A stretch of DNA of 64,000 nt from an uncultured cyanobacterium (GTDB lineage: Bacteria; Cyanobacteriota; Cyanobacteriia; Cyanobacteriales; CAWUOF01): positions 288,001 to 352,000 of the forward strand of contig CAVUSO010000001.1 of NCBI GenBank assembly GCA_963744145.1. Reading direction: 5' to 3'. This document shows positions 36,751 through 53,401 of this stretch, in pieces. The notes under the pieces were generated by a model. It was not told the DNA's origin. It did not search any database and saw nothing but the letters and a program-made list of their open reading frames with translations. The first letter of the stretch is position 1; each line of letters begins with the position of its first letter. The translations under genes were made by a program, and so were the position numbers.

Positions 36751-37563
36751 ATGCTACAGACTTTTACCCCTTTATTAAGAGTTAAACCGATTCCACCAGA
36801 AAAACTCGATGCTGAAGATCGGACAACTACTCAAGCAGTAGAACGGAAGATAAAACCTATTCATCCCTTTTTTCATTGGTGGGAAACAGTCCAAGCTGAT
36901 TTCCAGATTATTTTTGAGCGTGATCCTGCTGCTCGTAATTGGTTAGAAGTTCTTTGCTTTTACCCAGGTTTTCATGCTTTAGAGTTACATCGGATTGCCC
37001 ATTGGTTAAATAATCGGAAAATTCCCTTTTTTCCCCGTCTGATTTCTTATCTAACCAGGTTATTTACAGGAGTGGAAATTCACCCTGGTGCTGTGATTGG
37101 TAAGGGGGTATTTATCGATCACGGGATGGGAGTAGTCATTGGGGAGACAGCGATCGTCGGAGACTATACACTCATTTATCAGGGTGTGACTCTGGGAGGA
37201 ACAGGAAAAGAAAGTGGTAAACGTCATCCTACTCTTGGTCAGTATGTAGTGGTCGGAGCTGGAGCAAAAGTTCTAGGAAATATTGAAATTGGTGATCATG
37301 TTCGGGTTGGTGCAGGTTCAATTGTCCTCAGAAATGTCCCCTCCCAATGTACAGTGGTCGGAATTCCTGGTCGAAATATTTGTCCAATCCAAAAGTCCAC
37401 TTGTCCTTTAGACCATGAGCAAATCCCAGATGTAGAAGCTATAGCAATTCGTACTTTAGTCGATCGGATTGAGCAACTAGAAGAATTAGTTAAAAGTCAG
37501 TATGAACTGCAACAGAAGCAGAATCAAATAGTTAATCGTGAAAGGATTGAGGTGATGCTATGA
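36751..37563 (+). CDS. cysE: Serine O-acetyltransferase, nif-associated (NifP)
   Basis: RDPAA, YPG, EIHPGA, FIDHG, GKRHPT. Confidence 0.94.
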   Translation: MLQTFTPLLRVKPIPPEKLDAEDRTTTQAVERKIKPIHPFFHWWETVQADFQIIFERDPAARNWLEVLCFYPGFHALELHRIAHWLNNRKIPFFPRLISYLTRLFTGVEIHPGAVIGKGVFIDHGMGVVIGETAIVGDYTLIYQGVTLGGTGKESGKRHPTLGQYVVVGAGAKVLGNIEIGDHVRVGAGSIVLRNVPSQCTVVGIPGRNICPIQKSTCPLDHEQIPDVEAIAIRTLVDRIEQLEELVKSQYELQQKQNQIVNRERIEVML

Positions 37564-38693
37564 AGAGCGCCAATATAAATAAAACAATTCACATTAATGA
37601 TACAACACTACGTGATGGTGAACAAGCAGCAGGAGTGGCTTTTAATCTTGAAGAAAAAGTAGCGATCGCCACATTTTTAGATGCGATCGGTGTGCAAGAA
37701 TTAGAAGTTGGGATTCCCATAATAGGTCATGAAGAAGCTAGAGCCATTCGGGCGATCGCGGATTTAGGACTAAAAGCCAAATTAATCGGTTGGAATCGTG
37801 CTGTACCATCAGATATTCGGGCAGCGATCGCTTGTGGATTAAAACAAGTACATATCTCCGTACCTGTTTCTCCTATCCTGATCGAGGCTAAATTTCATGG
37901 GCAGTGGCGAACCATGTTAGAGTGCTTAGAAGAGACAATTAAGTATGCACTTGATGAAGGACTAGCTGTATCAATAGGTGGGGAAGACTCTTCCAGAGCT
38001 AATGAAAATTTCCTCTTAGATGTAGCATTATGTGCCCAAGAATGGGGAGCTTTTAGATTTCGCTTCTGCGATACAGTGGGAATTCTTGATCCGATCGCTA
38101 CCTATCAAAAAGTCAGCCAACTTGTCTCTAACCTATCTATTCCCATCGAGATGCACACCCATAACGATTTGGGATTAGCAACTGCTAATGCTTTAGCAGG
38201 AATCAAAGCTGGTGCTTTGTCAGTCAATACAACAGTCAATGGTTTAGGAGAAAGAGCCGGTAATGCTGCTTTAGAAGAAGTAGTAATGGCCCTCAAATGT
38301 ATCTATAAAATTGACCTGGGAATAGATACCAAACGTTTATTAGAATTATCACGTTTAGTTGCTCAAGCTTCTAATTGTCCAGTGCCACCTTGGAAAGCAA
38401 TTGTCGGAGCAAATACCTTTGCTCACGAATCTGGTATCCATGCACATGGAATCTTACAAAACCCTGTCACCTACGAACCTTTTGACCCCCAAGAAGTCGG
38501 TTGGGTTCGTCGTTTAGTCGTGGGTAAACATTCCGGTCGGCACTCAATTAAGCATTTTTTTGCCGAGCATGGGATGAACCTGAACCCAGAGGAAACCCAA
38601 TCAGTTTTGGAAGCAGTACGCGATCGAGCAGTGCAATCAAAACACAGTATGACGACAGAAGAACTGCTCAATTTAGCTACCCAAGGGAGATAA
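37560..38693 (+). CDS. nifV: Homocitrate synthase
   Basis: DTTLRDGEQ, HTHNDLG, GLGERAGN, GKHSG; nif context. Confidence 0.94.
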   Translation: MKSANINKTIHINDTTLRDGEQAAGVAFNLEEKVAIATFLDAIGVQELEVGIPIIGHEEARAIRAIADLGLKAKLIGWNRAVPSDIRAAIACGLKQVHISVPVSPILIEAKFHGQWRTMLECLEETIKYALDEGLAVSIGGEDSSRANENFLLDVALCAQEWGAFRFRFCDTVGILDPIATYQKVSQLVSNLSIPIEMHTHNDLGLATANALAGIKAGALSVNTTVNGLGERAGNAALEEVVMALKCIYKIDLGIDTKRLLELSRLVAQASNCPVPPWKAIVGANTFAHESGIHAHGILQNPVTYEPFDPQEVGWVRRLVVGKHSGRHSIKHFFAEHGMNLNPEETQSVLEAVRDRAVQSKHSMTTEELLNLATQGR

Positions 38694-38697
38694 ATCT

Positions 38698-38964
38698 ATG
38701 CAGCCAGATGAACTAGAACTGGACTTACCACCTCGTTTTGAAATAGGGGAAAAAGTCCAAACACGCAAATTAATCCGGAATGATGGGACATTTCCGGGTC
38801 AAGAAATTGGAGCAACTCTAGCAAAAAAAGGTGAAATTGGTTATGTAATTTCGATCGGTACATTTTTACAAAACTCCTATATTTATGCTGTGCATTTTAT
38901 GGGAACAGGCTTTATAGTTGGTTGTCGTGGTAGAGAATTAGAAACAGTAGAAACCAGAGTTTGA
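38698..38964 (+). CDS. nifZ: NifZ
   Basis: IRNDGTFPG, IGTFLQ, VGCR. Confidence 0.94.
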   Translation: MQPDELELDLPPRFEIGEKVQTRKLIRNDGTFPGQEIGATLAKKGEIGYVISIGTFLQNSYIYAVHFMGTGFIVGCRGRELETVETRV

Positions 38965-38975
38965 GGTAATTAAAA

Positions 38976-39182
38976 ATGAAAGTAATGTTACGTCGGGGTC
39001 AAACTGGCAAATTAATCGTTTATGTAGCCAAAAAAGACTTGGAAGAAGAAGTAGTCAGTCAAACTGATGAAGCAAATGGTAACAAAATTTTCACTTTAAC
39101 CAATGGTTGGGAATTAGAAATTGCTAATTTAAGTGAGCCATTACAATTACCACAAACAGTAGAAGCCAGACGTTTAAATTAG
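38976..39182 (+). CDS. nifT: NifT/FixU
   Basis: MKVMLR, YVAKKDLEE, NGW, PQTVEARR. Confidence 0.94.
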   Translation: MKVMLRRGQTGKLIVYVAKKDLEEEVVSQTDEANGNKIFTLTNGWELEIANLSEPLQLPQTVEARRLN

Positions 39183-39258
39183 ACTTGGAAAGGTGGTCAG
39201 GATAGTTCTATGCAGTTAAGTTAAATGCTCTGAGGGTCAACAACCGTTCACCCTCAGA

Positions 39259-39797
39259 CAATATGTTTAGTTAACTTGTAGGGGCGAAGCATTCGGGCGA
39301 TAATTCATCACTTAAATTGTACCCTGAGCGTTCCCTGAGCGAAGTCGAAGGGCGGAGTCGAAGGGCTATTAATTTTATATCCGAATGCTTCGCCCTTCTT
39401 CGCCGATATCTCCCAAAAAAAATCTTAACTGAATTTATTTTAATATATAGTTGATCTGTTGGTTTCATAAATGGTAAGGGCAAAGCATTTCGGTAATATT
39501 ATTCTTCCCTTCGACTACGCTCAGGCTAAACGCTTCAGCAACCATTTATGCGCCGAAATGCTTTGCCCCTACGGTTAACTGAACTGTATTGGCTGATAAG
39601 TTCTTCGCTGATATCTCCCAAAAAAAAATCTTAACTGAATTTATTTTAATATATAGTTGATCTGTTGGTTTCATAAATGGTAAGGGCAAAGCATTTCGGT
39701 AATATTATTCTTCCCTTCGACTACGCTCAGGGTAAACGCTTCAGCAATCATTTATGTGCCGAAATGCTTTGCCCCTACGGTTAACTGAACTGTATTG
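39259..39797. mobile_element. Composite MITE/REP-like repeat element, copy 2 (inverted relative to 4047-4492), with ~205-bp tandem duplication
   Basis: Ends CAATATGTTTAGTTAA / TTAACTGAACTGTATTG (at 39591 and 39797); 39396-39600 repeated at 39601-39806. Confidence 0.8.
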
Positions 39798-39877
39798 GCT
39801 GATAAGAATTAGGAGAAAATTGATGTTTTCGTTGAAATAAGTGCCAGAATTAAGCTTAATACTGAAATTGTTATATT

Positions 39878-41377
39878 TTACAGTTTACAAGTCTTTACGC
39901 GAGAAAAAAACTGATAGATCGTACAGGACTGATCCAACAAATTACCCCACGCATAAAAATTCCCTACCCCCCATATACCCCACCATCCCCAACTTGCCGC
40001 AGCGGGGAGGTGACCAAAACGTGCGAATGCGGTGCTAAATGTTAGGTCACTATAGTCCAACCATTTTTCTCCTTTCTTCCATCCTACTTTTATAGCAAAT
40101 TTACGTTTTATTACGCTATCTGCATTTGGATGTCCACCAACATCTTTACTCTCCCATATCTGTTTTTGAACGCTAAACCCAAAACGACCATCAGAGTATT
40201 TCATCCATAACTGATCTATAGTGCGAAAGTCTTTACAGGGAAATTTTAACCAATCATCACCAGTGAGATATCTTTCTTTTGTATTAGCAGCTCTAAGTAC
40301 AAGATCATAAGTTTTTTGATCAGCCTCTTTCCATAACCTATCAGCTAATAAGTTACAGAGATGAGTGTAATCTATATCTCTTTCACTTTCAAGAATAATT
40401 TGAGTTTGTCCAGATACTGGTGATTGGGAAAATTGTGCGTTAGGCGTTGATATATTGGGTATTGACTGACGTACTTGTTTGTTAGGTACTGATTTAGAAC
40501 TAAGCATTTGCAATACTTCACTAGCAGACTGATAGCGATCGCCCAAAGTAACCGATATCATTTTATCTAAGATCATCGCTAAATCATTATTAATATTGAC
40601 TAGCGATCGCCATACCCATTTCATTTGATAAAAGTCAAACAGTTTATCGACATAATTACCGTTTTGTTCTTCTAATAAACAACCCGTCAAAAGTCTAATA
40701 CAAGTAACACCTAAACTATATAAATCACTAGCGGGAAAAGCATGACCCTGTAGTTGTTCTGGAGCTGCGTAACCAGGAGTACCAATATTTGTACCTGCTC
40801 TTGTAAGAACAGTACCCGTAAGTTGCTTGGATACTCCAAAGTCAATTAACATCAAACGATTATTGGCATCTCTAATAATATTATCTGGTTTAATATCTCT
40901 ATGAATTACATTCTTTTGATGCAGAAACTCTAAAACAGGTAGAAGTTGATTTAATAAATTCCTAATCTTTTCTTCATCAAATCTGCCGTTCTGTTGTAAT
41001 TCCTTCAATAAATCTTTTCCATCAATGAACTCTTGTACTAAATATAACCGTCCATCCTGTTCAAAAAATGCTAGCAAATCTGGTATTTGGGGATGTTTAC
41101 CTAAATCTTTTAATCTGACAGCTTCTTGTTTAAATAATTCTGTAGCTTTTTGTAATGCACTACCACCTTGCAACTGAGGTAGAAATTGTTTAATCACACA
41201 GAATGTGCCCAGTCGTTGTTCGTCTATTGATTTGAATGTTCTCCCAAAACCACCCTCTCCGAGAAATTCTACTGCTCGATAGCGATCGCCCAGTAACAAC
41301 CTATTACCGCAGCGCACACAAAACTTTGTCCCAGATGGGTTGATATTCTCACACTCAGGGTTTAGACATAAGCTCAT
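39878..41377 (-). CDS. Ser/Thr kinase-GUN4 domain protein, paralog A
   Basis: 4-Cys N-terminus CLNPEC..CVRC, GEGGFG, HRDIKPDN, DFG, APE; GUN4 signature WKEAD..FPCKD..IDQLW..YSDGRFGFSVQKQIW..GHLP. Confidence 0.93.
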   Translation of the reverse strand: MSLCLNPECENINPSGTKFCVRCGNRLLLGDRYRAVEFLGEGGFGRTFKSIDEQRLGTFCVIKQFLPQLQGGSALQKATELFKQEAVRLKDLGKHPQIPDLLAFFEQDGRLYLVQEFIDGKDLLKELQQNGRFDEEKIRNLLNQLLPVLEFLHQKNVIHRDIKPDNIIRDANNRLMLIDFGVSKQLTGTVLTRAGTNIGTPGYAAPEQLQGHAFPASDLYSLGVTCIRLLTGCLLEEQNGNYVDKLFDFYQMKWVWRSLVNINNDLAMILDKMISVTLGDRYQSASEVLQMLSSKSVPNKQVRQSIPNISTPNAQFSQSPVSGQTQIILESERDIDYTHLCNLLADRLWKEADQKTYDLVLRAANTKERYLTGDDWLKFPCKDFRTIDQLWMKYSDGRFGFSVQKQIWESKDVGGHPNADSVIKRKFAIKVGWKKGEKWLDYSDLTFSTAFARFGHLPAAASWGWWGIWGVGNFYAWGNLLDQSCTIYQFFSRVKTCKL

Positions 41378-41687
41378 AACTTGTCAATAATCCACAGGTT
41401 TCGTGTATAAATAATAGCGGACAGTTAGCCCAAATGTCCAGTGAGGTGTCTTGTTACGGTGTGTTAAGCATTTTGTAGGCGATCGCTTAGATTGTGCGAG
41501 GTTTGATTGTGGGTTGATTAGAGGGCGATAGCTTTGGTTAGGTTTGGGGAGTGCGATCGCATATTTAGAATGATGTTATTCTTAGCTTCTGTGTCAGGTA
41601 TTGAGTTAGGGAAAAGCTGATTTTTTCGTAGAAATTAGTACCAAATTTAAGCTTGACAAATGACATGAAATTTTTATAACTCACAGG

Positions 41688-43877
41688 TTACAAGTCTTTG
41701 CGGAAGATAAGAAACCAACCAGTCAGCTTATTCCGCAAATACGGACTACAATTCCCAAAAAGACCGGAAACGCCTGCCGGGAGGTGGCCAAGTGGAGCGG
41801 TAGTGTTCAAGGTTAGGTCATTATCGTTCAACCAATTGCCTCCTTTTCTCCATCCTACTTTATCAGCAAATTTATGTATTATTTCATAACCTGCATCAGG
41901 ATGTCCACCAACATCTTTACTTTCCCAGATTTGTTTTTGAACGCTAAACCCAAAATGACCATCAGAGTATTTAATCCATAACTGATCTATTGTGCGAAGG
42001 TCTTTATAGGGAAACTTTAACCAATCGTCATCATTGAGATATTGTCCATTTTCACAATTAGCAGCTTTGAGTACAACCCTATAAGTTTCTTCATCAGCTT
42101 CTTTCCATTTACCAACAGCTAATAAGTCACGGAGAAGACTGTAATCTATTTCTATTTCACTCTCAAGAATAAGCTCTAGTTGCATTTTACAGTTTGCAAG
42201 TCTTTGTGCGAGAAAAGATGGTTTCAACCCTCCAAATCCCTCACGCCCCACATCTCCTGTGCCCCCAATCCACTGTTCCGGTAATATAATACCTACACAA
42301 GGGAAGTGGCCTATAGGTGCATCGGTATTAAATGTAAGATTGTTATAATCTAACCACTTTCCTCCTTTTCTCCATCCTACTGTATCACCAAATTTACGTT
42401 CTATCTCTATTTCTTCTTCTATTCCTGCGTTTGGATTTCCACCAACAGTTTTACTTTCCCAGATTTGTTTTTGGACACTATATCCAAAACGACCATCAGA
42501 ATATTTTACCCATAGCTGATCTATGGTACGAAGGTCTTTACAGGGAAACTTTAACCAATCATCACCATTGAGATATCCGTCTTTTTCACGATTAGCAGAT
42601 TCAAGTAAAAGATGGTAAGTTTTTTCATCAGCATCTTTCCAGTAACCAGCAGCTAATAAGTTTCTAAGAGGAATGTAATCTATATCTCTTTCACTGTCTA
42701 GAATAAGTTCTGCTGCTGTTATATTTTGTTGTGGTGACGATGATATTACTTCAATTTGGTTTTGTGGATGTGATGTTAATTCTATTACTGGCTTCATGTC
42801 TTGATTTATTGTTTCATTTAATTCAGTAATAATCCTTTGCTGAATTTTTTCTACATCTGCATCACGTAAACATAAATGAACACTAGCCCATTCCTCTAAT
42901 TCTTTAATAACTTTATCATCTAAAGGATAATTTTTAGAAATTTTTTGTCTATATTCTTCTTCATAACGTTTTAAGCTTTCGTGATATAATTGATGATGCT
43001 TTATAACACTACTTATTATTTCTTCAGCTTGCTCATCAGAAAGCTGTAAGTTCTCTTGTTTTGTTTTTAAAATATCACGATTAAGCTTAGATATTTCTCC
43101 ATCTTTAATTCGCATTTCAACTTCCTGACAAAATCTTTTCTCAGGGGTAGGAGCCATACTTATCAAAATATTATATCCTTCATTATCTAGAATAATTTTA
43201 GGCTCCATTTTGGGCTTGACTTCCTTGACTTTTGCTTTGGCATATTTATGTAATTCTTGGATATGAATTTTACCATCACCATCTGTATCAGCAGCACCAG
43301 TTTCAATACCTTCTACTAGATGCTTTGTATAAACCGATAATTCAGAGCCTTCATGTTGAAATGAAGTCTGATTTTTTGAGGAAGAAGCTAGTATTACTCT
43401 TCCCTCTGCACCTAATTCTTTATCTAATAAATCAATATCTATACCTTTAGGTTGCCAACCAATCGCAAAAGCACCGCTATAACAACAGTCTAAAATAATT
43501 ATTTGACGCTTTGCATAGTTACCATGCTTTGACATTTTTTGGATGAAACTAGCTGAAGCAGCAGTGGCTAGGAAATTATTTTTTGTGGTAATCCGAGTTG
43601 CTAGATAAAGTTGACCATCATCGTCTTTAATACCATGTCCAGAAAAAAATAGTAGAATTAAATCATCTTTATTACTACTTTGAAATAGTTTTTGAATTTC
43701 TTCAGTCATCTGAAGGTATTCGGGATTAATTAAAAAATTAACACTATCAAACCCTCCCATTTCAGGATTTTCTAATACCCGTTTCATTGCCTTTACATCA
43801 TTAGGTGGTGCAGATAAAGGATTAATGTCTTCTCCATATTCGCTAACACCTATTAGTAATGCTATTTTTTTAGGCAT
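41688..43877 (-). CDS. Caspase-like peptidase (C14) fused to two tandem GUN4 domains
   Basis: KIALLIGVSEY, FSGHG (His) and LDCCYSG (Cys) dyad intact; two GUN4 signatures. Confidence 0.92.
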   Translation of the reverse strand: MPKKIALLIGVSEYGEDINPLSAPPNDVKAMKRVLENPEMGGFDSVNFLINPEYLQMTEEIQKLFQSSNKDDLILLFFSGHGIKDDDGQLYLATRITTKNNFLATAASASFIQKMSKHGNYAKRQIIILDCCYSGAFAIGWQPKGIDIDLLDKELGAEGRVILASSSKNQTSFQHEGSELSVYTKHLVEGIETGAADTDGDGKIHIQELHKYAKAKVKEVKPKMEPKIILDNEGYNILISMAPTPEKRFCQEVEMRIKDGEISKLNRDILKTKQENLQLSDEQAEEIISSVIKHHQLYHESLKRYEEEYRQKISKNYPLDDKVIKELEEWASVHLCLRDADVEKIQQRIITELNETINQDMKPVIELTSHPQNQIEVISSSPQQNITAAELILDSERDIDYIPLRNLLAAGYWKDADEKTYHLLLESANREKDGYLNGDDWLKFPCKDLRTIDQLWVKYSDGRFGYSVQKQIWESKTVGGNPNAGIEEEIEIERKFGDTVGWRKGGKWLDYNNLTFNTDAPIGHFPCVGIILPEQWIGGTGDVGREGFGGLKPSFLAQRLANCKMQLELILESEIEIDYSLLRDLLAVGKWKEADEETYRVVLKAANCENGQYLNDDDWLKFPYKDLRTIDQLWIKYSDGHFGFSVQKQIWESKDVGGHPDAGYEIIHKFADKVGWRKGGNWLNDNDLTLNTTAPLGHLPAGVSGLFGNCSPYLRNKLTGWFLIFRKDL

Positions 43878-43890
43878 TTCACTAAGTATT

Positions 43891-44268
43891 TTATGTATTA
43901 GACAATAAATCTTGAACAGTTTCTTTTGTTATAGGTAAATTTTGGCTTGTTGTTTTTATTTTAATTTTTTTATCTCCATCTTTTGTAATTTCAAGTTCTA
44001 TTTCAATAGGTTTATCTTGTAGACGCTCTTTAAACCATGCAAAAACAAATTGAATATTAAATAATTTCACTACAGTTGTAATAGACCCAAGTAATGTCTG
44101 AATGCTTTTTTTATTTAGGTCTATATTTGGGTCTTCAGTAAAATCAGCTTTTTCAACTGCATCAATTTCACGTAATTCTTGCAACAATTTTTCAGTCAAT
44201 TCTAATAATTCGTCATCTTCTAATGTTGGATCTGCTAAACCAAAAGTTATTTCAACTAGCTCTGTCAT
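43891..44268 (-). CDS. EACC1-like small protein upstream of caspase
   Basis: 125 aa, acidic helix (ELLELTEKLLQELREID), central hydrophobic stretch, beta-rich C-terminus; 13 bp before caspase; GGAG RBS. Confidence 0.65.
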   Translation of the reverse strand: MTELVEITFGLADPTLEDDELLELTEKLLQELREIDAVEKADFTEDPNIDLNKKSIQTLLGSITTVVKLFNIQFVFAWFKERLQDKPIEIELEITKDGDKKIKIKTTSQNLPITKETVQDLLSNT

Positions 44269-44282
44269 TTTGGCTCCTTATG

Positions 44283-44456
44283 TTAATTTTTGTTTCTTTT
44301 TATAGTACGATGAGACAAATCCCGAATTAATTCCCGGATAATAGAGTGTTTAATCTCCTGGCGTTCTAAGCAATAAGCCTCCAGCGCCAAATACTTACTC
44401 TCTGGCAATTCAATATTCAACCGCTTAATCGGCTCAGTTAGCACTTTTCTGGGCAT
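44283..44456 (-). CDS. Ribbon-helix-helix (CopG-like) small DNA-binding protein, 57 aa (not in ORF track)
   Basis: MPRKVLTEPIKRLNIELPESKYLALEAYCLERQEIKHSIIRELIRDL...; strand-helix-helix pattern; stop 14 bp before EACC1-like gene. Confidence 0.65.
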   Translation of the reverse strand: MPRKVLTEPIKRLNIELPESKYLALEAYCLERQEIKHSIIRELIRDLSHRTIKRNKN

Positions 44457-44612
44457 TGTGGTTATTTCACAAAACTCGTGTATTTATTCTAGTGTATAAT
44501 CCGGCAAACGTCCAATAGCAAGTAATCGATATCTGGGCAAGTTTCTGAATGCCCAACCCCAACCAAGAAATATCCTTTTTATTCAAAAAGGTTTGCTAAT
44601 CTAAAAGCTAAT

Positions 44613-45515
44613 TCAAAGGCTAAATATTCTCTCATCAGTTAATACCTGCATAGATTGTCTTTTCTCCAAATTTTTCCAATGTTTCATAGCTTCTTTATAA
44701 CGCTCTTTTAATGCGCTTGCATCAGGTTTATTACAGTTATGCTTATTTAATTTTAAGAATGTATTATCATATTGCTGATAATGGCTTTTTTCTAAGCTAG
44801 GATGGATATGAATTTTTTTATTTTCATCAATTGCTATAAGATGAGCATCAAAAAGCTTATGAATATCAACACAAAGAAGCAATCCATTAGAAGGATCATT
44901 GTTTTGGTTTTTTTCGTAAGGCTCTATATGAGCAGCTTCTAAAAGTATTTGAATATCAGAATCAGTAATTAGACAACGATAATTATACAAATTTAACAAT
45001 TGTAGGCGGAATTTATACTGTCCTAGTCTATTAGCTAGTCTATTAGATTTAGATTGTATAAAATTTATAACATAAGGATCTGAAATAATAGCTCGATTAA
45101 GTTTCGCAAATTGAAGCTTTGCGTATTGAAAATTAGTTGATGGAAAAATAGAAAGCTGGCCATAATTTAGCTTCTCGTGATGTTTATTCAAGTAAGTTGT
45201 ATCCAACATCTTTAAGTCTATATATCCTAACTCTGCATAATCAAAAACTGCATCGTACAAATTCATTCCTTCAAAATTTGCATATTGAAGGTTTGCTCCT
45301 TCAAAGTTTGTTCCATCCAATTCAGATCCTCGAAAGTCAGCATTTTGAAGTTCTGCCCCTCGAAAGCTAGCATATTCAAGATTAGCACCCCGGAAATCTA
45401 CACCATTAAGAATCAAATGATCCAAAATTAGGTGATTTAAATCTACCGCTCGAAAATCTCGTTGCCCGTTTTCGTACTGAGCCTTAATTTTATCAATATC
45501 CATATTATGTATCAT
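44613..45515 (-). CDS. Pentapeptide-repeat protein fused to HNH endonuclease
   Basis: A(D/N)F/L pentapeptide repeats; C-terminal FR..LL..Y..RCLIT..LEAAHIEP..NGLLL..DIHKLFD. Confidence 0.82.
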   Translation of the reverse strand: MIHNMDIDKIKAQYENGQRDFRAVDLNHLILDHLILNGVDFRGANLEYASFRGAELQNADFRGSELDGTNFEGANLQYANFEGMNLYDAVFDYAELGYIDLKMLDTTYLNKHHEKLNYGQLSIFPSTNFQYAKLQFAKLNRAIISDPYVINFIQSKSNRLANRLGQYKFRLQLLNLYNYRCLITDSDIQILLEAAHIEPYEKNQNNDPSNGLLLCVDIHKLFDAHLIAIDENKKIHIHPSLEKSHYQQYDNTFLKLNKHNCNKPDASALKERYKEAMKHWKNLEKRQSMQVLTDERIFSL

Positions 45516-45617
45516 CCATTTTTTGTTTTTTGACCCGATGAAACTATGCTAACATATATAGAGGCGTTATGGCAAGATATGTGTAAGCCAGATTAGTGAA
45601 TCAAAAATCTTAACCAT

Positions 45618-46685
45618 CAGAAGTTACGCAGTTGAACTGGGGATGTGGTAAAAAAAGATCATGAATCCACCTAAATCCACGCCCCTCGAATACATTAACT
45701 TCCTGATTGCGGCAAAAGGCATACAGTTGTAGCGAAGCCGAGCGTGTTCAACCAATCGCAGAAAACCGAGCAGCCCACGATGCGACTTGTGTTGAGCGTA
45801 GTCGAAACATTAACCGTTTGCTGCATCGAAGGTCACCAGACCCCAATGAATTCTGGCAGGAAGCCAAAGACTATGTTGAGTTAAACCAAGGGGTTCTGGT
45901 CATTGATGATACAATGCTTGACAAGTGGTATGCCAAAAAGATGGAGTTGGTCAGTCGGCAATGGTCAGGGAAGCATAAACGTGTTGTCCAAGGCATCAAT
46001 CTGACTACCCTATTATGGTCAGATGGGGATAAACATATCCCATTAGACTATCGACTTTATGAGAAAGAAGTGGACGGGGCTACCAAAATGACCACTTTCG
46101 AGCCATGTTGCTTAATGCCCATGCCAGAGGCTTTCATGCCCAGTGTGTAGCAATTGAATAGTTGGTTTAGTTCTTTGGCCAATTTGAAATTAATTGCTAG
46201 TTATAGCTGGACTTGGTTGACTCGACTGAAATCTAATCGATTGGTAAATGCGGATCATACCGAAAACCGACCAATTAGGGAGGTAGCGTTAGCCCAAACG
46301 GGCACAGTAGTTCATCTGAAAGGTTATGGGTTCATTAAAGTATTCAAGATTGTTGCCCCAGACGGTGACATTGACTACTGGGCGACCAATGACTTACAGA
46401 TGAGCAGCTTAAAACGTTTACAGTGGGCGGAATTTGAATGGTCAATTGAGGAATATCATCGAGGTCTAAAGCAATGCTGTGGCGTGGAAAGATCCCAAGT
46501 TCGGTCGGCTCGCGCAAGGGCGTAATCACATTGGTTTGGCAATTCGGGCCTTTCTCCGTTTGGAGATGCACTGGTTTAACACTGGCATCAGTTGGTATGA
46601 GTCCAAAATTAGTATTGTGCGTGAAGCAGTCCGCTCTTACTTAGAGGCCCATTGGCTGTCTCTCCCGTCAACTGCGTAAGTCCTG
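45618..46685 (+). mobile_element. IS701-like insertion sequence, defective
   Basis: TIR CAGAAGTTACGCAGTTGA vs CAGGACTTACGCAGTTGA (16/18); direct repeat ACCAT at 45613-45617 and 46686-46690. Confidence 0.88.
45661..46679 (+). pseudogene. DDE transposase with several frameshifts
   Basis: MNPPK start at 45661; fragments with VIDDT, SWF, WSIEEYHRGLKQ in different frames. Confidence 0.85.
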
Positions 46686-46955
46686 ACCATGACGAGGATG
46701 AAGTGTCAGAGTGTGGCTGGAAAAAACTAGCCTGTAGTCTTTACTACAGAAACTGCTTGTGCGCTCAAGCTAATGCAATATAGAACAACTACGGTAGGAT
46801 CGCTTTGTTGACAGGTTGTTGGAGTATGATCACACTAAAGAGCATATTAAGTCTTAATTATTAAAGTATTTTTAGCTGTGACATTTCAGATGGTGTAAAA
46901 CATCCACTCTAGATTTACTCAGGACTAAATTTTCAAGCAATTTGGCAACCTTTAA

Positions 46956-48635
46956 TCATTGTATTCGTCCCTGTAAAATAGCATTTTTAATTTCCAAGAG
47001 AGGTCCTAAAACATCTGGTGCAAGAGCCAATTGAAGTACCATCTCATAATCTTGTTGTGCCAAAGGATGTGTGTGCGAACCTAGATTGCGAATTCTAGAA
47101 ATATCAGTCCAGGCATCTATTACTCTGCTAGATAAGGAACTACCAATTGCCTGTTGAATCATTAAATCTAATCTTTCATTTGGTGAATTAGTCATAGTTA
47201 TAACTAGGTGTAAAGCATCTCCAAGAGTAATAAACCGATGACGACCACTTGCACGATTAACCCAATCTAACTGATTGATATCAACAGTTATTACTCTATT
47301 TCCTCTATGTCCTGTTTCTACAATTCCTCGTTTTTGTGGAAGCGTAGGATCATGCAGGGTAAAATATGTCGGCATAGTGATGTCACGCGCCGCTCTTGCA
47401 GCTTGAATCATCGATAAGTTTACTTCTAGTTCAAAAGCTTTCCATACACCTTGAGCGCCAGGTGTAAAATCAATATCCATCATTGGTTGTAGTCTTTGTG
47501 CAGCGGGATTTTGATTAACTATTGGTTGTGGTCTTTGTGCCGCAGGATTCCGATTAATTGGTTGTGGTCGTTGTGTAGCAGGATTTTGATCAATTGATTG
47601 TGGTCGTTGTGCAGCGGGATTTTGTGCAACAGGATTCCGATCAATTGGTTGTGGTCTTTGGATATTACGATTCTGTCCATATCCTCCCTGGGGTCTTCGT
47701 CTACCAAGAGGACCAATACCTTCAAGTGCGTTTTCTGCTAGACTTTCAAGAAAAGAGCCAACAGCAAGAGATGTTTCAATCATTACTGCTGATTCATCAT
47801 TAAGAAGCGGTGGAAGTTCGACTGTATTTTGCAAATTCTGAAGAACTCTTGCCGCAACAAATGCTGGAGCTATGAGCCTTCCCGTTGCATCTTCAATTAC
47901 AGCATCTTCCGATCCTATCCCTGTCAAATCAAGGTCTTCAAATTGCTGAGAACGATTGTTTCGCCTCAATGAGTTGAGACTATTTTCAACCATATCCAAT
48001 TGTCTACCAAGTTCATAGCGATAATCGTTAGCTTCTAGACCTCGTTCCGTGTCAAAAGTATTTAAAATGTTATAAAAAGCCCTTAATCCTTGACGATTTG
48101 ACTCATTTTGTAGACGATAATCTACTTGATCGCTACATATTGCTTCAAGGGTAGTAAATATATGCCCAATATTTGGAATTCCATATTGATCAGGAAGTCT
48201 TGCAAGTTCATTTAATTGCACATCGAGATGTTCTGATGAGGTTGGGGAAATCACGTATTCTAATTGCCAAAGATTTGTTGATGCAACAATGGCAGGAAGA
48301 GAATGCCAAGGAATGCCAAACAAACGTGCTATTTCCCGTATTAATGGTCCCTCGTTAGTTGTAAATGATAAAGTACCAGCAGTTGCCTGATAATTTCTCC
48401 ACCATCGTGAATTACTACGATCTTGCAGCCATTCATCTGGGGGATCTAACACGGCAAAAAAAGCAAGGTTTTCACCTGTACTTTCATGCAAATTCGCAAA
48501 TTCAGCTTTCAAATATTCAGTAAAAATTACATCACTTGGCTTGAAAAGAATTGCGACCTGTATTGGAAACCTTGCAAAATACTTTTGTGAAGGCGATCCC
48601 GCATTAAAGATATTTGTTTTTATTGGAAATACCAT
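46956..48635 (-). CDS. Hypothetical protein with internal Q/P/R repeats and candidate C-terminal HEPN domain
   Basis: 559 aa; KAFELE helix and RNLGSH (Rx4H) near the C-terminus. Confidence 0.6.
   Translation of the reverse strand: MVFPIKTNIFNAGSPSQKYFARFPIQVAILFKPSDVIFTEYLKAEFANLHESTGENLAFFAVLDPPDEWLQDRSNSRWWRNYQATAGTLSFTTNEGPLIREIARLFGIPWHSLPAIVASTNLWQLEYVISPTSSEHLDVQLNELARLPDQYGIPNIGHIFTTLEAICSDQVDYRLQNESNRQGLRAFYNILNTFDTERGLEANDYRYELGRQLDMVENSLNSLRRNNRSQQFEDLDLTGIGSEDAVIEDATGRLIAPAFVAARVLQNLQNTVELPPLLNDESAVMIETSLAVGSFLESLAENALEGIGPLGRRRPQGGYGQNRNIQRPQPIDRNPVAQNPAAQRPQSIDQNPATQRPQPINRNPAAQRPQPIVNQNPAAQRLQPMMDIDFTPGAQGVWKAFELEVNLSMIQAARAARDITMPTYFTLHDPTLPQKRGIVETGHRGNRVITVDINQLDWVNRASGRHRFITLGDALHLVITMTNSPNERLDLMIQQAIGSSLSSRVIDAWTDISRIRNLGSHTHPLAQQDYEMVLQLALAPDVLGPLLEIKNAILQGRIQ
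47482..47660 (-). repeat. Intragenic ~36-nt tandem repeat encoding QRPQPI(D/N)(R/Q)NPAA
   Basis: About five imperfect units visible in DNA and protein. Confidence 0.85.
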
Positions 48636-49110
48636 AGGAGCTAACGAAAAATAGAATCTAATGTTGTATTTTTTGAATCGCAGATTTTGGATGGAAAAGT
48701 TGTCTAGCTTTTTGATAAAGGCATAAACTTACTTGCAACCAAAATAACCTTACTTATACCATCAAAGCACCGAACCCAATATTTGTCAACAGAATACCAG
48801 CACTACTCACTGCTTAAAGTTTATTAAGCCTTGTGCATCAATTATTTACTACTTGATCATCTACTCAAATAGAACATTTACAAGTTGTCGCGGAGAAGAG
48901 CTTACCGTTGGCTTAGGGGTCGGGATGAATCAGGCTGCCGATGGTTAGGGGCTGTTGATAGCTTGGCGATCGCGAAATGGCTAAAAAATACGGTTGGAAA
49001 CTGGTCGATATAGAGGAAACAAATAACGATATCCTACCTGTAGATTGTATATTTGACGGCCAAACCGAATTCCCAAAGTCCTATTATGATCACGATGAGG
49101 AGTAACAATA

Positions 49111-49248
49111 ATGCGTAAGTGGATTGTTTTCCGTGCTGATGGACGACAACCTGGCGGGCTAACCCGCAAATATGCCCACACGGGGTCACTCACAAAAACT
49201 TTAGCCCAGAGGATCTCCTGGGTGCAGAAGGTATTCTCAAGCAATTAA
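49111..49248 (+). pseudogene. Short, probably truncated hypothetical ORF (MRKWIVFRAD...)
   Basis: GAGGAG RBS then ATG at 49111; only 45 codons. Confidence 0.35.
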
Positions 49249-49399
49249 CAAAAGCATTTAAAGTAACTAGGTATTAGTTATTGTCGCAAAATGTAAGCGA
49301 ATTATTGCCTATAAGCATTAGAGAAAATTTGATATTTTTGTAGTAATTAGTACCAAATTTTAGCTTGGCAAATGGCATGAAGTTGTTAGAGCTTAAAGG

Positions 49400-50818
49400 T
49401 TACAAGTCTTGGCGCGAGAAAAGATCCGCGCAAAACCCCCAGAACCCTCCACCATCTACTATTACCACTACACCAAGGGCCCGCGCGGGAAGGTGGCCAG
49501 AAAGAGCAGTGATGTTAAATGTTAGATTACTATAGTCTAACCAGTTTCCTCCTTTTCTCCATCCTAATTTATCAGCAAATTTGTAATACGTATTCCAATC
49601 TGCATTAGGATGTCCACTAACACCCTGACTTTCCCAGATTTGTTTTTGAACGCTAAACCCAAAACGACCATTAGAATATTTTACCCATAACTTATCTATG
49701 GTGCGAAGGTCTTTACATGGAAACTTTAACCAATCATCACCAGTGAGATATTCCTCTTGTTCACGATTAGCAGCTTTAAGTACAAGATGATAAGTTTTCT
49801 TGTCAGCTTCTTTCCATTTTCTAGTAGCTAATAAGTCACGGAGAGGAGTGTAATCTATTCCTTTTTCACTTTCAAGATTATCTTGATTTTGTGGAGCTAT
49901 TGGTTGTGAAGAAAACTCGGTTTTAGGTATTGATTTAGAACTAAGTGCTTGCAATATTTCACTAGCAGATTGATAGCGATCACCCAAAGGAACCGATATC
50001 ATTTTATCTAAAAAAACACCCAAATCATTGCTAACACTAGCATATTGTCGCCACACCCATTTCATCTTATAAAAATCAAACAACTTATCTATATTGTTGC
50101 CATTTTGTTCTTCTAATAAACAACCTGTTAAAAGTCTAATACAAGTAACACCTAAACTATATAAATCACTAGCGGGAAAAGTTTGACCCTGTAATTGTTC
50201 TGGAGCTGTATAACCAGGAGTACCAACTGATGTACCCACTCTTGTCATTACAGTACCGCTTAATTGCTTGGATACACCAAAATCAATTAACATTAAACGA
50301 TTATTAGCATCTCTAATAATATTCTCAGGTTTAATATCTCTGTGAATTACATTATTTTTATGAATAAATTCTAAAACAGGTAGAAGTTGATTTAATAAAT
50401 TTTTAATTTTTTCCTCATTAAATTTGCTGTTTTGTTGTAGTTCCTTTAATAAATCTTGTCCGTCAATAAATTCTTGTACTAAATATAGCCGTCTATCTTG
50501 TTCAAAGAATGCTAATAAGTCAGGTATTTGGGGATGTTTACCTAAGTCCCTTAATCTGACAGCTTCTTGTTTAAATAATTCTGTAGCTTTCTGTAATGCT
50601 CCACTACCTTGCAACTGAGGTAGAAATTGTTTAATCACACAGAATGTGCCCAGTCGTTGCTCGTCTATTGATTTGAATGTTCTCCCAAAACCACCCTCAC
50701 CGAGAAATTGTACTGCTCGATAGCGATCGCCCAGTAACAACCTATTACCGCAGCGCACACAAAACTTTGTCCCAGATGGGTTGATATTCTCACACTCAGG
50801 GTTTAGACATAAGCTCAT
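49400..50818 (-). CDS. Ser/Thr kinase-GUN4 domain protein, paralog B
   Basis: Same architecture as 39878-41377; HRDIKPEN, DFG, APE; GUN4 signature. Confidence 0.93.
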   Translation of the reverse strand: MSLCLNPECENINPSGTKFCVRCGNRLLLGDRYRAVQFLGEGGFGRTFKSIDEQRLGTFCVIKQFLPQLQGSGALQKATELFKQEAVRLRDLGKHPQIPDLLAFFEQDRRLYLVQEFIDGQDLLKELQQNSKFNEEKIKNLLNQLLPVLEFIHKNNVIHRDIKPENIIRDANNRLMLIDFGVSKQLSGTVMTRVGTSVGTPGYTAPEQLQGQTFPASDLYSLGVTCIRLLTGCLLEEQNGNNIDKLFDFYKMKWVWRQYASVSNDLGVFLDKMISVPLGDRYQSASEILQALSSKSIPKTEFSSQPIAPQNQDNLESEKGIDYTPLRDLLATRKWKEADKKTYHLVLKAANREQEEYLTGDDWLKFPCKDLRTIDKLWVKYSNGRFGFSVQKQIWESQGVSGHPNADWNTYYKFADKLGWRKGGNWLDYSNLTFNITALSGHLPARALGVVVIVDGGGFWGFCADLFSRQDL

Positions 50819-50994
50819 AACTTGTCAATAATCCACAGGTTTCGTGTATAAATAATAGCGGACAGTTAGCGCAAATGTCCAGTGAGGTGTCTTGTTACGG
50901 TGTGTTAAGCATTTTGTAGGCGATCGCTTTAAAATAGACATTACATATCATAAATTTTTCCAAAAATAGGTTATTCCCTCAATTATTCCTAAAC

Positions 50995-51231
50995 ATGATG
51001 ACAACCAAAGAGCAATTACTTGAAGAACTTGAAACCCTTCCCGAAGAACTCATTAGTGAAGCATTGGACTACATCTGCTTCATCAAAAATCGTTATAGTC
51101 TAAAACTGGAAGCCATTCGGGCGATCGCAAAACTCGACTCAGACTGGTGGGAAAACCTCAATAACTTCACCCCTGATTTTCTGGACGAGCGATCACAGCC
51201 TAACCTGCCCAACAGAGAGGACATATTTTGA
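50995..51231 (+). CDS. vapB: Antitoxin (VapB-like) of type II TA pair
   Basis: Small acidic ORF with FTPDFLDERxQP tail; TGATG overlap with PIN toxin. Confidence 0.75.
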   Translation: MMTTKEQLLEELETLPEELISEALDYICFIKNRYSLKLEAIRAIAKLDSDWWENLNNFTPDFLDERSQPNLPNREDIF

Positions 51232-51632
51232 TGAGATTTCTGCTCGACACAAATATCTGTATTTATATTATCAAACAGAAGCCTATTTCCGTTCGTCAAC
51301 GTTTCCAATCAGTCAATACAGGACATATCGGTATTTCAATTGTTACACTTGCCGAATTGGAGTATGGTGCTGCTAAAAGTAAAAACCCTATAAGAAACCG
51401 TGAAACTCTTAAAGTATTCTGCGCTCCTTTCGAGATCATCGACTTTAATGAAGAAGATGCGCGAATTTTTGGCAAGATTCGTACTGATTTAGAGCAACGA
51501 GGACAGCCTATTGGCAGTTATGACTTGCTTATTGCCGCACAAGCCCTTAGTCGCGGTCTTATTATCGTAACGAACAATATTAAAGAATTTAGTCGCATTG
51601 ATGGGCTAGTTATTGAGAATTGGGTCAAATAG
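51231..51632 (+). CDS. vapC: PIN-domain toxin VapC
   Basis: LLDTNICI, ELEYG, IGSYDLLIAAQA, TNNIKEF, ENW. Confidence 0.93.
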   Translation: MRFLLDTNICIYIIKQKPISVRQRFQSVNTGHIGISIVTLAELEYGAAKSKNPIRNRETLKVFCAPFEIIDFNEEDARIFGKIRTDLEQRGQPIGSYDLLIAAQALSRGLIIVTNNIKEFSRIDGLVIENWVK

Positions 51633-51784
51633 AATGAGGCGATTGATCTGTTAACAATTTGGATTCATCGCGATCGCTATAATTATGTAATAACTGGGTA
51701 GCGATCGCTTTGGTGGTGATTGTCTCTGTGCTTTGATTGGGTGTTTTTGGGTGCGATCGCATTAAAGATTTTATTAATCATTGA

Positions 51785-53401
51785 TTATTTTCCAATAGTT
51801 TCACTTTTAAAAGATAATTTAATATTGGGTAAACCTGAATTCTTTAATCGGTTAGAAATTTCTGCTTTAGCTGATGGAAAAGTAGGAAAATTCTCATTCA
51901 TTCCAAAAGGAATCCCTACACTATATCCGATTTTTTCTATTTTTATATTAACCCTAGCAGGTACTATATACTTCCGAGGTGAGATATAAAATTTCTCTAG
52001 ATAACCGCTCCCATTACTTAAATTTTTGATAAAATCATCACTAAAATAGTTAGTAGCAAGATCGGCAAAATCTTTCAGATATTCTTCAAACAAAAGCCAT
52101 CCAATTTTATCAACACCAGCTAAAACGTAAACAGTATCAAATCTACAAGAGGGATTTTGTACTTTCTGATTGTTTAATATTCCGGAGACTGAATTAAATA
52201 TAGGAACTATCTGACCATTAGAATATTTTATAGATTCAGAAGGCATTTGTGGATCAAGACTAAAACATTTAACGAATAATCCTATTTTTTCTCTAATCCC
52301 ACTAAATCTAAATTCTCTTTTCTCATATTTATGAAGATTAATTCCCCGTTTTAATAATAATTCCTCAATCGTATTAAATTCAGAATTAACTAATGTTGAT
52401 TTTATTTGTTCAGAGCGACGAGAGCGACTTCCTAATCCACGCATTCCAGTTTTATATTCCTGACTAACTTTGGACATAGTTGCATTAATAGCTTCACGTT
52501 CCAAAGTTTCATCATTGAATAGGATTTCAATCAAATCTGAATTATATGGTTTAAGTCTCTTTAAGCAGAAAGTGTAATAATGATCTTGGTCAGCTTGATT
52601 TTGAATATTAGCTAATGATTCTGGAGTTAATGCGTTAATAGGTTCTTTAGCTAAGGTAGTTTCAATATATTCTCTCATTTGCGGCGCTTCTTCTTTTAAA
52701 TACAAACCTTTCCAATAATTAACCTCAATTACATATCCATTTACATAAAGACGATACATAAAAGAGTAAGTAGGTGGTAAACCAGGTGGCAAGTTTTCCC
52801 ATTTATTAGCATAAGCTTTGCGACTATTAAATGCTTGCCTGATAACTCCTTGTGTATTCTGCCAATTCTGAGTATCAAGCTGGTATTTCGTGGCAAAAGC
52901 TTCTAAATCGAGACAAATATGAATAATGCTTAATCCCAAAATTCTTTTCTGTACCATCCAGTCAATAGTGTTTAAGTTCTGGGGTTGGTTTTGAATATCT
53001 TTTCTAGGTGGCTCTACTCCTAAGATGAAAGCAAAATCAGCGATCGCGATTATTGTTTCCCTTAAAAGAGTTTCAGTTGGACGTACTGCTTTCGTCTTTA
53101 CTGGAGTAGAGTTTAACTCTGGACAATATGTTTCAATACGTTGGGTTTCTACATGATCTAATTGAGACACACTAACTTGTTCATAATAAATAGTAAAATA
53201 TCTCTTTTTCTGCGATTCTAGTTGATCAATACGGTGATGAGCTTTCCCTTGCCAACGCTTATTGAGATTTTTGGTTTTTCCTATATACCAAATATGGTTA
53301 TTTTCGTCTAAAACATAGTAAATTCCAGAATATTCAGGAAGTAGATGTTTCATTGATAAAGAAATCTTTGAAAGTTGCAGAATATTTTCGTCAGCAATCA
53401 T
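51785..53401 (-). CDS. GIY-YIG nuclease domain protein with long unknown C-terminus
   Basis: SGIYYV...WYIGKT.NL.KRW...E...LN. Confidence 0.8.
   Translation of the reverse strand: MIADENILQLSKISLSMKHLLPEYSGIYYVLDENNHIWYIGKTKNLNKRWQGKAHHRIDQLESQKKRYFTIYYEQVSVSQLDHVETQRIETYCPELNSTPVKTKAVRPTETLLRETIIAIADFAFILGVEPPRKDIQNQPQNLNTIDWMVQKRILGLSIIHICLDLEAFATKYQLDTQNWQNTQGVIRQAFNSRKAYANKWENLPPGLPPTYSFMYRLYVNGYVIEVNYWKGLYLKEEAPQMREYIETTLAKEPINALTPESLANIQNQADQDHYYTFCLKRLKPYNSDLIEILFNDETLEREAINATMSKVSQEYKTGMRGLGSRSRRSEQIKSTLVNSEFNTIEELLLKRGINLHKYEKREFRFSGIREKIGLFVKCFSLDPQMPSESIKYSNGQIVPIFNSVSGILNNQKVQNPSCRFDTVYVLAGVDKIGWLLFEEYLKDFADLATNYFSDDFIKNLSNGSGYLEKFYISPRKYIVPARVNIKIEKIGYSVGIPFGMNENFPTFPSAKAEISNRLKNSGLPNIKLSFKSETIGK

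Follow-up and report, generated by a model that had tools for sequence, protein, structure and literature searches.

A window of 64,000 nucleotides from the genome of an uncultured cyanobacterium (assembly GCA_963744145.1, contig CAVUSO010000001.1, positions 288,001 to 352,000) carries three minus-strand genes for GUN4-like proteins, and the 3′ ends of these genes share a DNA cassette of about 40 nt that codes for a short protein ending, with its own stop codon, in each of the three reading frames. The cassette is used in all three frames, its unused stops and off-frame codons are retained, the variable segment immediately ahead of it changes by all-or-none replacement, and the arrangement is spread across the phylum. 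With moderate confidence, we take the cassette to be a frame-neutral C-terminal adaptor for a large family of GUN4-like sensors that is retained through exchange among paralogs.

One cassette, three reading frames

The cassette is built from a near-invariant pyrimidine (CU) repeat, the letters CGCG, a stretch rich in A and TGTAA-type heptamers that overlap to form a ladder, and its common form is illustrated by a natural example at locus L092, TCTCTTCTCTCGCATCGAGACTTGTAAACTGTAACATCTAAGGCTTTCCGATATTTGTAAAGA. Frame A ends at the first stop with ..SLLSRRDL, frame B at the second with ..LFSRVETCK(L/V), and frame C at the third with ..SSLASRLVNCNI. In every frame the peptide runs from a stretch of Ser, Leu and Phe through an Arg and a few further residues to a hydrophobic one, after which comes the stop. 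Frame C provides the last helix of the GUN4 fold, frame B a very similar peptide shifted by 7 nt, and frame A a shortened one. The motif S-R-x-x-x-C-x-(L/I/V)-stop is common to frames B and C at an offset of 7 nt, because in each TGTAA-type heptamer the Cys codon read in one frame overlaps the stop read in the next. A sequence-only reading of this DNA had described stop triplets spaced 7 nt apart on the minus strand, and the sequence at all three sites in the window reads exactly so, with a single TGA among the nine stops (the second stop of gene 2, 41683-41681) and only one stop used per gene, namely the second in gene 1 and the first in genes 2 and 3. The same reading had the 4-nt spacers diverging; they do vary, but not freely, being about 76–80% identical to consensus and carrying an invariant T at +5 in 53 full-ladder tails.

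Frame usage was followed in several sets of genes. For a genome sample, the GUN4 alignment up to the GHLP codons was scanned on one genome per species without conditioning on the cassette, and of at least 604 matches the best 80 were retained, giving 79 loci with 76 complete tails; these belong to Nostoc, Anabaena, Microcoleus, Moorena, Trichodesmium, Microcystis, Xenococcus and others and span Nostocales and Oscillatoriales. A full ladder, defined as stops at 0/±7/±14 including the used stop, occurs in 53 of the 76 GUN4-like tails (A 12, B 18, C 22, one ambiguous between B and C), while the background rate among open frames of at least 150 codons in the source genome is 95/5079 (1.9%). A weight matrix in which the nine stop positions are ignored anchored fifty-one of the tails, and these end in frame A 12 times, in B 17 times and in C 22 times. 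A metagenome sample was defined by an exact 20-mer ending just before stop 1; it gave 74 distinct cassettes, several of them together on single contigs, and the 70 with at least 60 open codons divide into 18 A, 30 B and 22 C. Degenerate DNA patterns recovered only 11–17 of 29 known copies, or else were expected to return tens of thousands of chance matches, and the protein-anchored scan and the one exact 20-mer were therefore used instead. Finally, 17 intact copies found by BLAST in other genomes use frames A, B and C five, five and seven times. Each of the three stops is the real stop in 24–43% of genes.

The stops that a given gene does not use are nevertheless kept. In the 51 anchored tails, 38 of 41 downstream stops, lying in true 3′ UTR, and 60 of 61 upstream stops are intact (98/102), and the metagenome replicate gives 57/66 downstream and 70/74 upstream (127/140), with all three stops intact in 57 of 70 cassettes. 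Set against the rest of the 3′ UTR, as the sequence-only reading had proposed, they are its best-kept 3-mers: in genes of types A and B, 72–93% of sequences have a stop at the ladder positions, and every other 3-mer matches consensus in 0–78%. Synonymous sites point the same way. The cassette Cys codon is TGT in 38 of 39 cases, as against 34 of 74 (46%) in the domains of the same genes (binomial p 3e-12; as relatives are not independent, such p values are upper bounds on significance), and the cassette Val codon is GTA or GTG (GTR) in 20 of 20 cases against 71% elsewhere. Where an unused stop overlaps codons in use, the choice of TGT or GTR thus preserves the off-frame stop. Together, frame usage, stop retention, the substitution of one stop codon for another and synonymous sites support the earlier suggestion that the cassette ends translation in whichever frame the upstream variable segment delivers.

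Variation inside the cassette obeys the codon logic of the unused frames. Its positions are equally conserved in A-, B- and C-type genes, whichever frame is read, and the ladder stops interchange among TAA, TAG and TGA. At +13, where the frame-C Ile codon has its third base, only A, C and T occur and G is absent from all 51 genes; 29 of these genes do not read frame C. C or T predominates at +10 (45/51), and C or G at +4, which makes the codon Leu or Val.

Which frame a gene uses has no relation to domain kinship. Of 22 nearest-neighbour cases whose domains are at least 85% identical, 18 differ in frame, and overall 17 of 66 cases have a common frame, against a chance expectation of 33.5%. Two loci, L070 and L085, have a premature TGA, in one right after GHLP and in the other just before the cassette, and the G/T-rich segment and/or the cassette is still intact behind it without being read. 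Such genes may have been broken recently, or they may be in an 'off' state.

The variable segment and its 5′ boundary

Between the GHLP codons and the cassette, ahead of the last GUN4 helix, lies the variable segment. It contains 37% G, 33% T, 17% A and 13% C, compared with 21% G, 29% T, 30% A and 19% C at other gene ends, and off-frames are open through it in 45% versus 18%. In 18 of 75 tails the two off-frames both stop within the ladder zone, compared with 45 of 5078. One 46-nt segment (G000_a277818; G000 is the source genome) consists of G and T only, and some copies contain homopolymer runs, such as G7-G8 (G8 at G000:C1:~378990) and T7 in gene 1.

The way in which the segment changes is best seen in nine close pairs of genes. 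Their third-codon identity is 76–90% and the 183 nt downstream are 58–95% identical, but the variable segments show no similarity (z −2.2 to +2.6) in either the nucleotide or the purine/pyrimidine alphabet, and their lengths mostly differ by non-multiples of 3. In other words, the segment is replaced between genes that are otherwise 85–92% identical. Five pairs can be aligned through the segment, and all five have the same frame, so that a phase-variation signature, namely alignable pairs differing in frame, was not found among them. One such pair (L165/L203) is about 92% identical with a single in-frame 6-nt gap, and the close relatives L088/L111 have identical tails at 96% domain identity. 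Because close pairs either align throughout or show no similarity, the change is an all-or-none replacement and not a gradual hypermutation. Transition-only hypermutation (C to T plus A to G) was rejected on the grounds that the purine/pyrimidine patterns of close pairs are unrelated. The segment was also considered as a tail-anchor membrane helix, a reading set aside because many segments are too short or charged.

The 5′ boundary of the segment is constrained at the nucleotide level, far beyond the codon usage of the genes themselves. Across 76 loci, CTC makes up 46 of the 73 Leu codons of GHLP (18.6% for comparison) and CAC 47 of the 68 His codons (30% for comparison). The resulting string is CACCTCC, which we take to be the anti-Shine-Dalgarno letters of 16S rRNA.

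Several draft assemblies break in or near the segment or the cassette (G159:C140 and C137, with the cassette at bases 15-100; G087:C200; G333:C419; L116, L059, L084 and L089). Such breaks may simply come from multi-copy flanks, but a sample in which the segment is heterogeneous should show them too.

The ending in the GUN4 fold

Canonical Gun4 proteins, which bind porphyrins (PDB 4xkb, 1z3x, 1y6i), have the same fold as the domains described here. AlphaFold2 (AF2) models the frame-C ending as a helix with a pLDDT of 82–85 behind a low-confidence insert, and residues 1-161 of that model superpose on Gun4 4xkb 82-233, to the last residue, with Z 20 and an rmsd of 1.7 over 145 residues. The site of the variable segment, just before the last helix, presumably corresponds to the porphyrin-clamping loop region. 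The canonical Gun4 gene of the source genome (G000:C1:1114726-1115145) has neither insert nor cassette, and its GHLP runs straight into the last helix; the family described here, in contrast, is fused to signalling and cell-death domains, among them kinases, caspases, CHAT/STAND and NACHT NTPases. Fusions of GUN4 to such domains have been noted for conflict systems in the available part of one paper (PMC7159879).

Distribution of the cassette

The source genome (7.7 Mb, 39% GC) has 54 GUN4 (PF05419) matches. The earlier claim that the stops are conserved behind every terminal GUN4 domain holds in the window, where all three terminal tails have them, but not genome-wide, where 18 of 41 GUN4 tails carry the full ladder (A 7, B 8, C 3), and these 18 include diverged cassette subfamilies with heptamer ladders of their own. 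All of the further cassette copies in this genome lie behind a GUN4-like domain. In 13 copies, the open reading frame (ORF) ends at stop 1 (..SRKDL) six times, at stop 2 (..LFSRAKTCNL) five times and at stop 3 (..VSSLAQRLVTCKI) once, while the remaining copy has a 5-nt deletion.

When one 126-nt copy served as a BLAST query, 22 of the 401 genomes of the order proved to have the cassette; they represent at least nine families, and most have one or two copies. The carriers are kinase-, caspase-, CHAT/AAA/NB-ARC- and NACHT-GUN4 proteins. Neighbouring genes vary by genome, some being toxin-antitoxin genes, and include ABC permease, HxlR, PIN, HicB, Gp49/HTH and Y1 transposase. No protein family recurs as a conserved downstream partner gene, and only DNA-level clusters were found, in 15–16 of the 76 loci. 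Clusters of GUN4 domains occur in the source genome at G000:C1:7455743-7460436 and 1293545-1303365, with one open frame of 1066 codons holding four GUN4 domains and with four kinase-type genes within 10 kb, which suggests local tandem expansion.

The downstream module and orphan copies

Conservation does not stop at the ladder. Behind it lies a non-coding module of about 85 nt that ranges from the source genome to Nostocales and Oscillatoriales and is also present in L007-L026 and L049-L127. Its blocks are TTTCAG, (T)AAAGATTTAT, CACGAAG and TTTCCGATACCTGGCAC, and it has a sharp 3′ edge after ..CTGGCAC (..ATACCTGGCAC). Parts of the module occur with no GUN4 ORF in front at G000:C1:2540533-2540584 and at L003 (G010:C458), and whole orphan cassettes that likewise have no GUN4 ORF were found at L018 (G371) and L024:1774-1917 (G149). 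The two orphans have a common upstream stretch with a TATAAT-like box. In four copies of the source genome (C1 near 1602339, 2488034, 4097779 and 7024350), the module has been swapped for a repeat rich in GCGATCGC (HIP1-like) palindromes; the swap starts directly after the ladder, which is largely kept.

Searches for nucleic-acid signals gave little. Rfam returned no relevant match in window positions 38500-52000 and 20 related loci, and none for the downstream module. RNAalifold on 27 and on 32 cassettes predicted 0 pairs on the sense strand, and hence no consensus structure. Local folding of 12 stretches from GHLP to cassette gave z values of −2.85 to +0.86, only one of them beyond ±1.3; pairing of the flanks with the G-rich insert is what composition alone gives. 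A simple consensus scan called neither a promoter (−35/−10) nor a terminator (GC hairpin plus T run) at the three cassettes of the window. An NtcA box (GTA-N8-TAC) noticed in this genome's module was discarded because it is not conserved in other genomes. On the reverse strand of ..TACGAAAACAT.., many copies of this genome's module type have an ATG, two codons and a stop (TAA, TAG or TGA, varying), a by-eye reading that makes a 3-codon mini-ORF possible.

How the three frames could be retained

Since the cassette ends usefully in all three frames, any variable segment placed ahead of it gives a terminated protein. Under the adaptor model, the many paralogs would exchange their 3′ ends by recombination or gene conversion across conserved flanks, with the cassette and its flanks acting as homology arms. 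The unused frames would then be kept because such exchange would test each cassette repeatedly in every frame. The benefit would be a loop that can evolve freely, and this variable loop probably sets ligand specificity.

Several observations weigh against this model. The only trace of recombination among paralogs is the mosaic of identity levels. When 11 variable segments of the source genome were searched for in that genome as donors or shared copies, they matched only themselves, and no pair of genes shows a simple 1–2 nt indel that switches the frame. In the enlarged family of this genome, moreover, the unused stops decay, with 8/11 upstream and 16/23 downstream still kept. The AF2 tail of frame A has a pLDDT of 28–55 and is not docked; as frame A is not confidently placed and frame C is helical in these models, the endings are not equivalent. 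The adaptor model also leaves the conserved non-coding module behind the ladder unexplained, and both orphan cassettes keep their ladders (TAA TAG TAA in L018; TTA TAG TAA in L024), which fits either recent decay or a role at the DNA level. Finally, the samples are not entirely free of bias: the 79 loci come from a query built on cassette-bearing genes, the anchoring matrix was built from full-ladder tails, and the metagenome set requires the exact 20-mer.

A different account of the conserved unused frames is that each gene decodes its cassette in more than one frame, through slippage of the ribosome or of RNA polymerase at the G-rich segment or the CU tract, so that isoforms are made and all frames are directly selected. 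It is known that G-rich, Shine-Dalgarno-like stretches upstream of the shift site stimulate frameshifting in prfB and dnaX, and the near-invariant pyrimidine repeat before the ladder often stands behind G runs, as with the G8 mentioned above, or with T7 in gene 1. The equal conservation of used and unused frames, even in the 3′ UTR of A- and B-type genes, would follow directly. The CU-repeat tract is conserved, but there is no conserved upstream motif, the 8 nt before the tract having neither conserved spacing nor a motif (0.1–0.3 bits), there is no canonical X XXY YYZ heptamer, and there is no downstream structure beyond what composition gives (|z| ≤ 1.3 in 11 of 12 stretches; 0 pairs by RNAalifold). 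The decay of unused stops in this genome's paralogs counts against direct selection as well, and this explanation is considered unlikely. It would also be conceivable that the stops are incidental and that the ladder is conserved within some non-coding signal in DNA or RNA, for instance a promoter on the antisense strand, a site bound by a protein or an element of the 3′ UTR. Conservation for about 85 nt past the last stop to the sharp edge ..ATACCTGGCAC suits such a signal, as do the module parts and orphans found with no GUN4 gene, and by eye this genome's variant reads TTGACA, 16 nt and TATATC on the reverse strand over the third stop. A signal of this kind, however, would not explain why ladder variation follows codon logic, with stops swapped for stops and the restrictions at +13, +10 and +4, or why every stop serves as a real stop in a substantial share of genes. 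With no promoter called, no Rfam match and no sense-strand consensus structure, and with the ladder largely kept in the four copies whose module was replaced, this possibility is judged quite improbable.

The replacement of the segment could also be the work of a dedicated process, in which the stretch between CACCTCC and the pyrimidine tract is cut out and made anew by biased synthesis, either untemplated or by fold-back, with the flanks as cis signals and with the three-frame cassette rendering each junction productive. Its sharp boundaries, its all-or-none replacement by unrelated sequence of unrelated length, a G/T bias beyond amino-acid needs that reaches G and T only in the 46-nt case, the failure to find donors for the 11 segments, the nucleotide-level constraint on the CTC and CAC codons of GHLP and the otherwise unexplained module would all be accommodated. 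No candidate enzyme is linked to the loci, however, whose neighbours are unrelated, and tails are stable in close relatives (the pairs L088/L111 and L165/L203 above), so that any resynthesis would have to be rare on the evolutionary scale. Such cutting and filling is regarded as very unlikely. In its boldest form, CACCTCC, insert, cassette and module to ..ATACCTGGCAC would be the cis apparatus of a bacterial process that excises and resynthesises the loop of innate-immunity-like sensors, a proposal that we hold to be doubtful to a high degree. If true, it would be a prokaryotic counterpart of junctional (N-region) diversity, with a 'J segment' productive in all three frames that solves the out-of-frame problem with no cells discarded. 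Ordinary paralogy or chance, by which recently duplicated 3′ ends of an AT-rich genome just happen to have stops in common, has a practically negligible probability. The window genes are indeed paralogous and TAA is common at 39% GC, but this explanation is refuted by the occurrence of the cassette in the 22 genomes and in Nostocales, Oscillatoriales, Microcystis and Xenococcus, by the low background rate of full ladders and by the metagenome replicate.

Comparison with known systems

In contingency loci with C-terminal phase variation, a simple-sequence tract inside a gene changes in length, which moves the frame and alters the C-terminus. Some copies here have G7-G8 or T7 runs, but the frame change goes with wholesale replacement of the segment and not with steps of 1–2 nt, no sign of ongoing switching was seen, and no frame amounts to OFF.

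Hidden, out-of-frame stops have been treated under the ambush hypothesis, and the portions of that literature at hand present selection on them as debated (PMC3700767, PMC5909447, PMC2996987). As described in those portions, ambush stops and tandem back-up stops resemble the cassette in that stops of unused frames end shifted reading. The ambush idea, however, concerns a diffuse statistical enrichment inside genes, whereas the cassette has a fixed ladder at the gene end that is conserved position by position across the phylum, with each stop real in about a third of the family and a usable ending coded in every frame. The PE_PGRS genes of Mycobacterium tuberculosis, as far as the accessible text goes, have Gly-rich biased coding in which off-frame stops are scarce, so that an indel alters the protein instead of cutting it short, and the shifted proteins run on into intergenic DNA (PMC13328622). 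Their biased, off-frame-open coding is like that of the variable segment, but by the same partial account they lack a dedicated three-frame terminator, and in the cassette every frame is caught within 17 nt.

Targets of diversity-generating retroelements (DGRs) offer another parallel. In the sections available of one study (PMC7517822), the ligand-binding part at the C-terminus of cyanobacterial multidomain DGR targets is hypervariable and is followed immediately 3′ by conserved sequence, and the N-terminal domains are of the same kinds as here (kinase, orthocaspase, CHAT, NACHT/STAND). By that account the DGR fold is a C-type lectin, whereas here it is GUN4, and here the segments differ in length and at all bases, not at adenines only. 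No reverse transcriptase (RT) lies near the loci: the three RVT_1 matches of the source genome are at 3.19, 5.01 and 5.09 Mb and the window is at 0.29–0.35 Mb, and none was found among the 20 cassette-bearing and flanking ORFs scanned in ten contexts of 5–8 kb from other genomes. A search for a template repeat gave no match near the RT genes of this genome. A DGR was ruled out by this lack of a nearby RT and of a template repeat.

What could be consulted of the literature on GUN4, hypervariability, orthocaspases and three-frame reading contains only domain-architecture notes on GUN4 fusions (PMC7159879, PMC7517822) and no cassette. None of the nearest concepts joins a stop ladder that is fixed, three endings that overlap and a phylum-wide interchangeability in their use. 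The cassette is a natural, phylum-wide case of one DNA stretch that is functional in three frames, each with its own stop, and that is used interchangeably, and it provides the long-disputed idea that out-of-frame stops are selected with a concrete instance, in which the effect size is very large. It also draws attention to a hypervariable site that had gone unnoticed in the GUN4-like domains of cyanobacterial kinase, caspase and STAND proteins, and points to GUN4 modules as diversified ligand sensors of conflict or cell-death systems. For gene calling, annotation pipelines will meet three unrelated-looking C-termini in one family, and for engineering, the cassette offers a natural terminator and adaptor for all three frames, ready to use.

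The genes of the window

All three window genes lie on the minus strand. Their products match the Pfam GUN4 model (PF05419) with 118.5, 252.4 (two domains) and 139 bits against a cut-off of 29.2, and with E values of 1e-34 to 1e-75, and the kinase N-termini are near-identical in two of the three paralogs. When the 3′ ends of the three genes are aligned, GUN4 is conserved to the GHLP codons, 60–92 nt are then unalignable, and conserved DNA resumes about 24 nt before the first stop and continues to about 100 nt past the last.

Gene 1 (39878..41377) encodes a Ser/Thr kinase (Pkinase) with a C-terminal GUN4-like domain. Its GHLP codons, GGT CAC CTC CCC, at 40004..40015 form the 5′ boundary of a G/T-rich variable segment of 92 nt (39912..40003) that is unique in the genome, and the three-frame cassette, with pyrimidine tract, CGCG and stop ladder, follows at 39871..39911. 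The ladder consists of TAA at 39885-39887, TAA at 39878-39880, which is the stop used, and TAA at 39871-39873. The gene is in frame B and ends at the second stop with ..FFSRVKTCKL, so that its ending is frame-shifted to ..SRVKTCKL in place of ..SRKDL. Its downstream non-coding module (39770..39870) is a partly diverged copy.

Gene 2 (41688..43877) encodes a caspase (Peptidase_C14) with two GUN4-like domains and has two cassettes. The internal one, behind the first GUN4 domain (42180..42220), is read in frame C as ..SFLAQRLANCKMQLE.., and its ladder has CAA at 42194-42196 (stop 1), an off-frame TAA at 42187-42189 and CAA at 42180-42182 (stop 3). Because stops 1 and 3 are CAA, the tandem-domain protein reads on into the second GUN4. 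The GHLP codons at 41778..41789 bound a variable segment of 63 nt (41715..41777), and the terminal cassette (41674..41714) is read in frame A, ending with ..LIFRKDL at the first stop (TAA 41688-41690), with TGA at 41681-41683 and TAA at 41674-41676 behind it. The downstream module (41573..41673) is near consensus, with the 3′ edge ..ATACCTGACAC.

Gene 3 (49400..50818), a Ser/Thr kinase (Pkinase) with a GUN4-like domain, is also in frame A and ends with ..DLFSRQDL at the first stop. Its GHLP codons at 49487..49498 are the 5′ boundary of a variable segment of 60 nt (49427..49486), and its cassette at 49386..49426 carries TAA at 49400-49402 (used), 49393-49395 and 49386-49388; on the minus strand the site reads GATCTTTTCTCGCGCCAAGACTTGTAACCTTTAAGCTCTAACAACTTCATGCC. 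The conserved non-coding module follows at 49285..49385.

Between and beside the GUN4 genes, the window has ORFs at 44613-45515 (−), 45707-46150 (+), 51785-53401 (−) and 37560-38693 (+), which are a pentapeptide-repeat plus HNH endonuclease, a DDE_5 transposase fragment, a GIY-YIG and a homocitrate-synthase-like gene (HMGL-like plus HCS_D2). In run X1, made of soil metagenome contigs with a depth of about 3–7, contig depth is about 139 at window positions 39700-39800 and 1–8 elsewhere, with many loose ends, which indicates a short repeat common to other organisms or loci.

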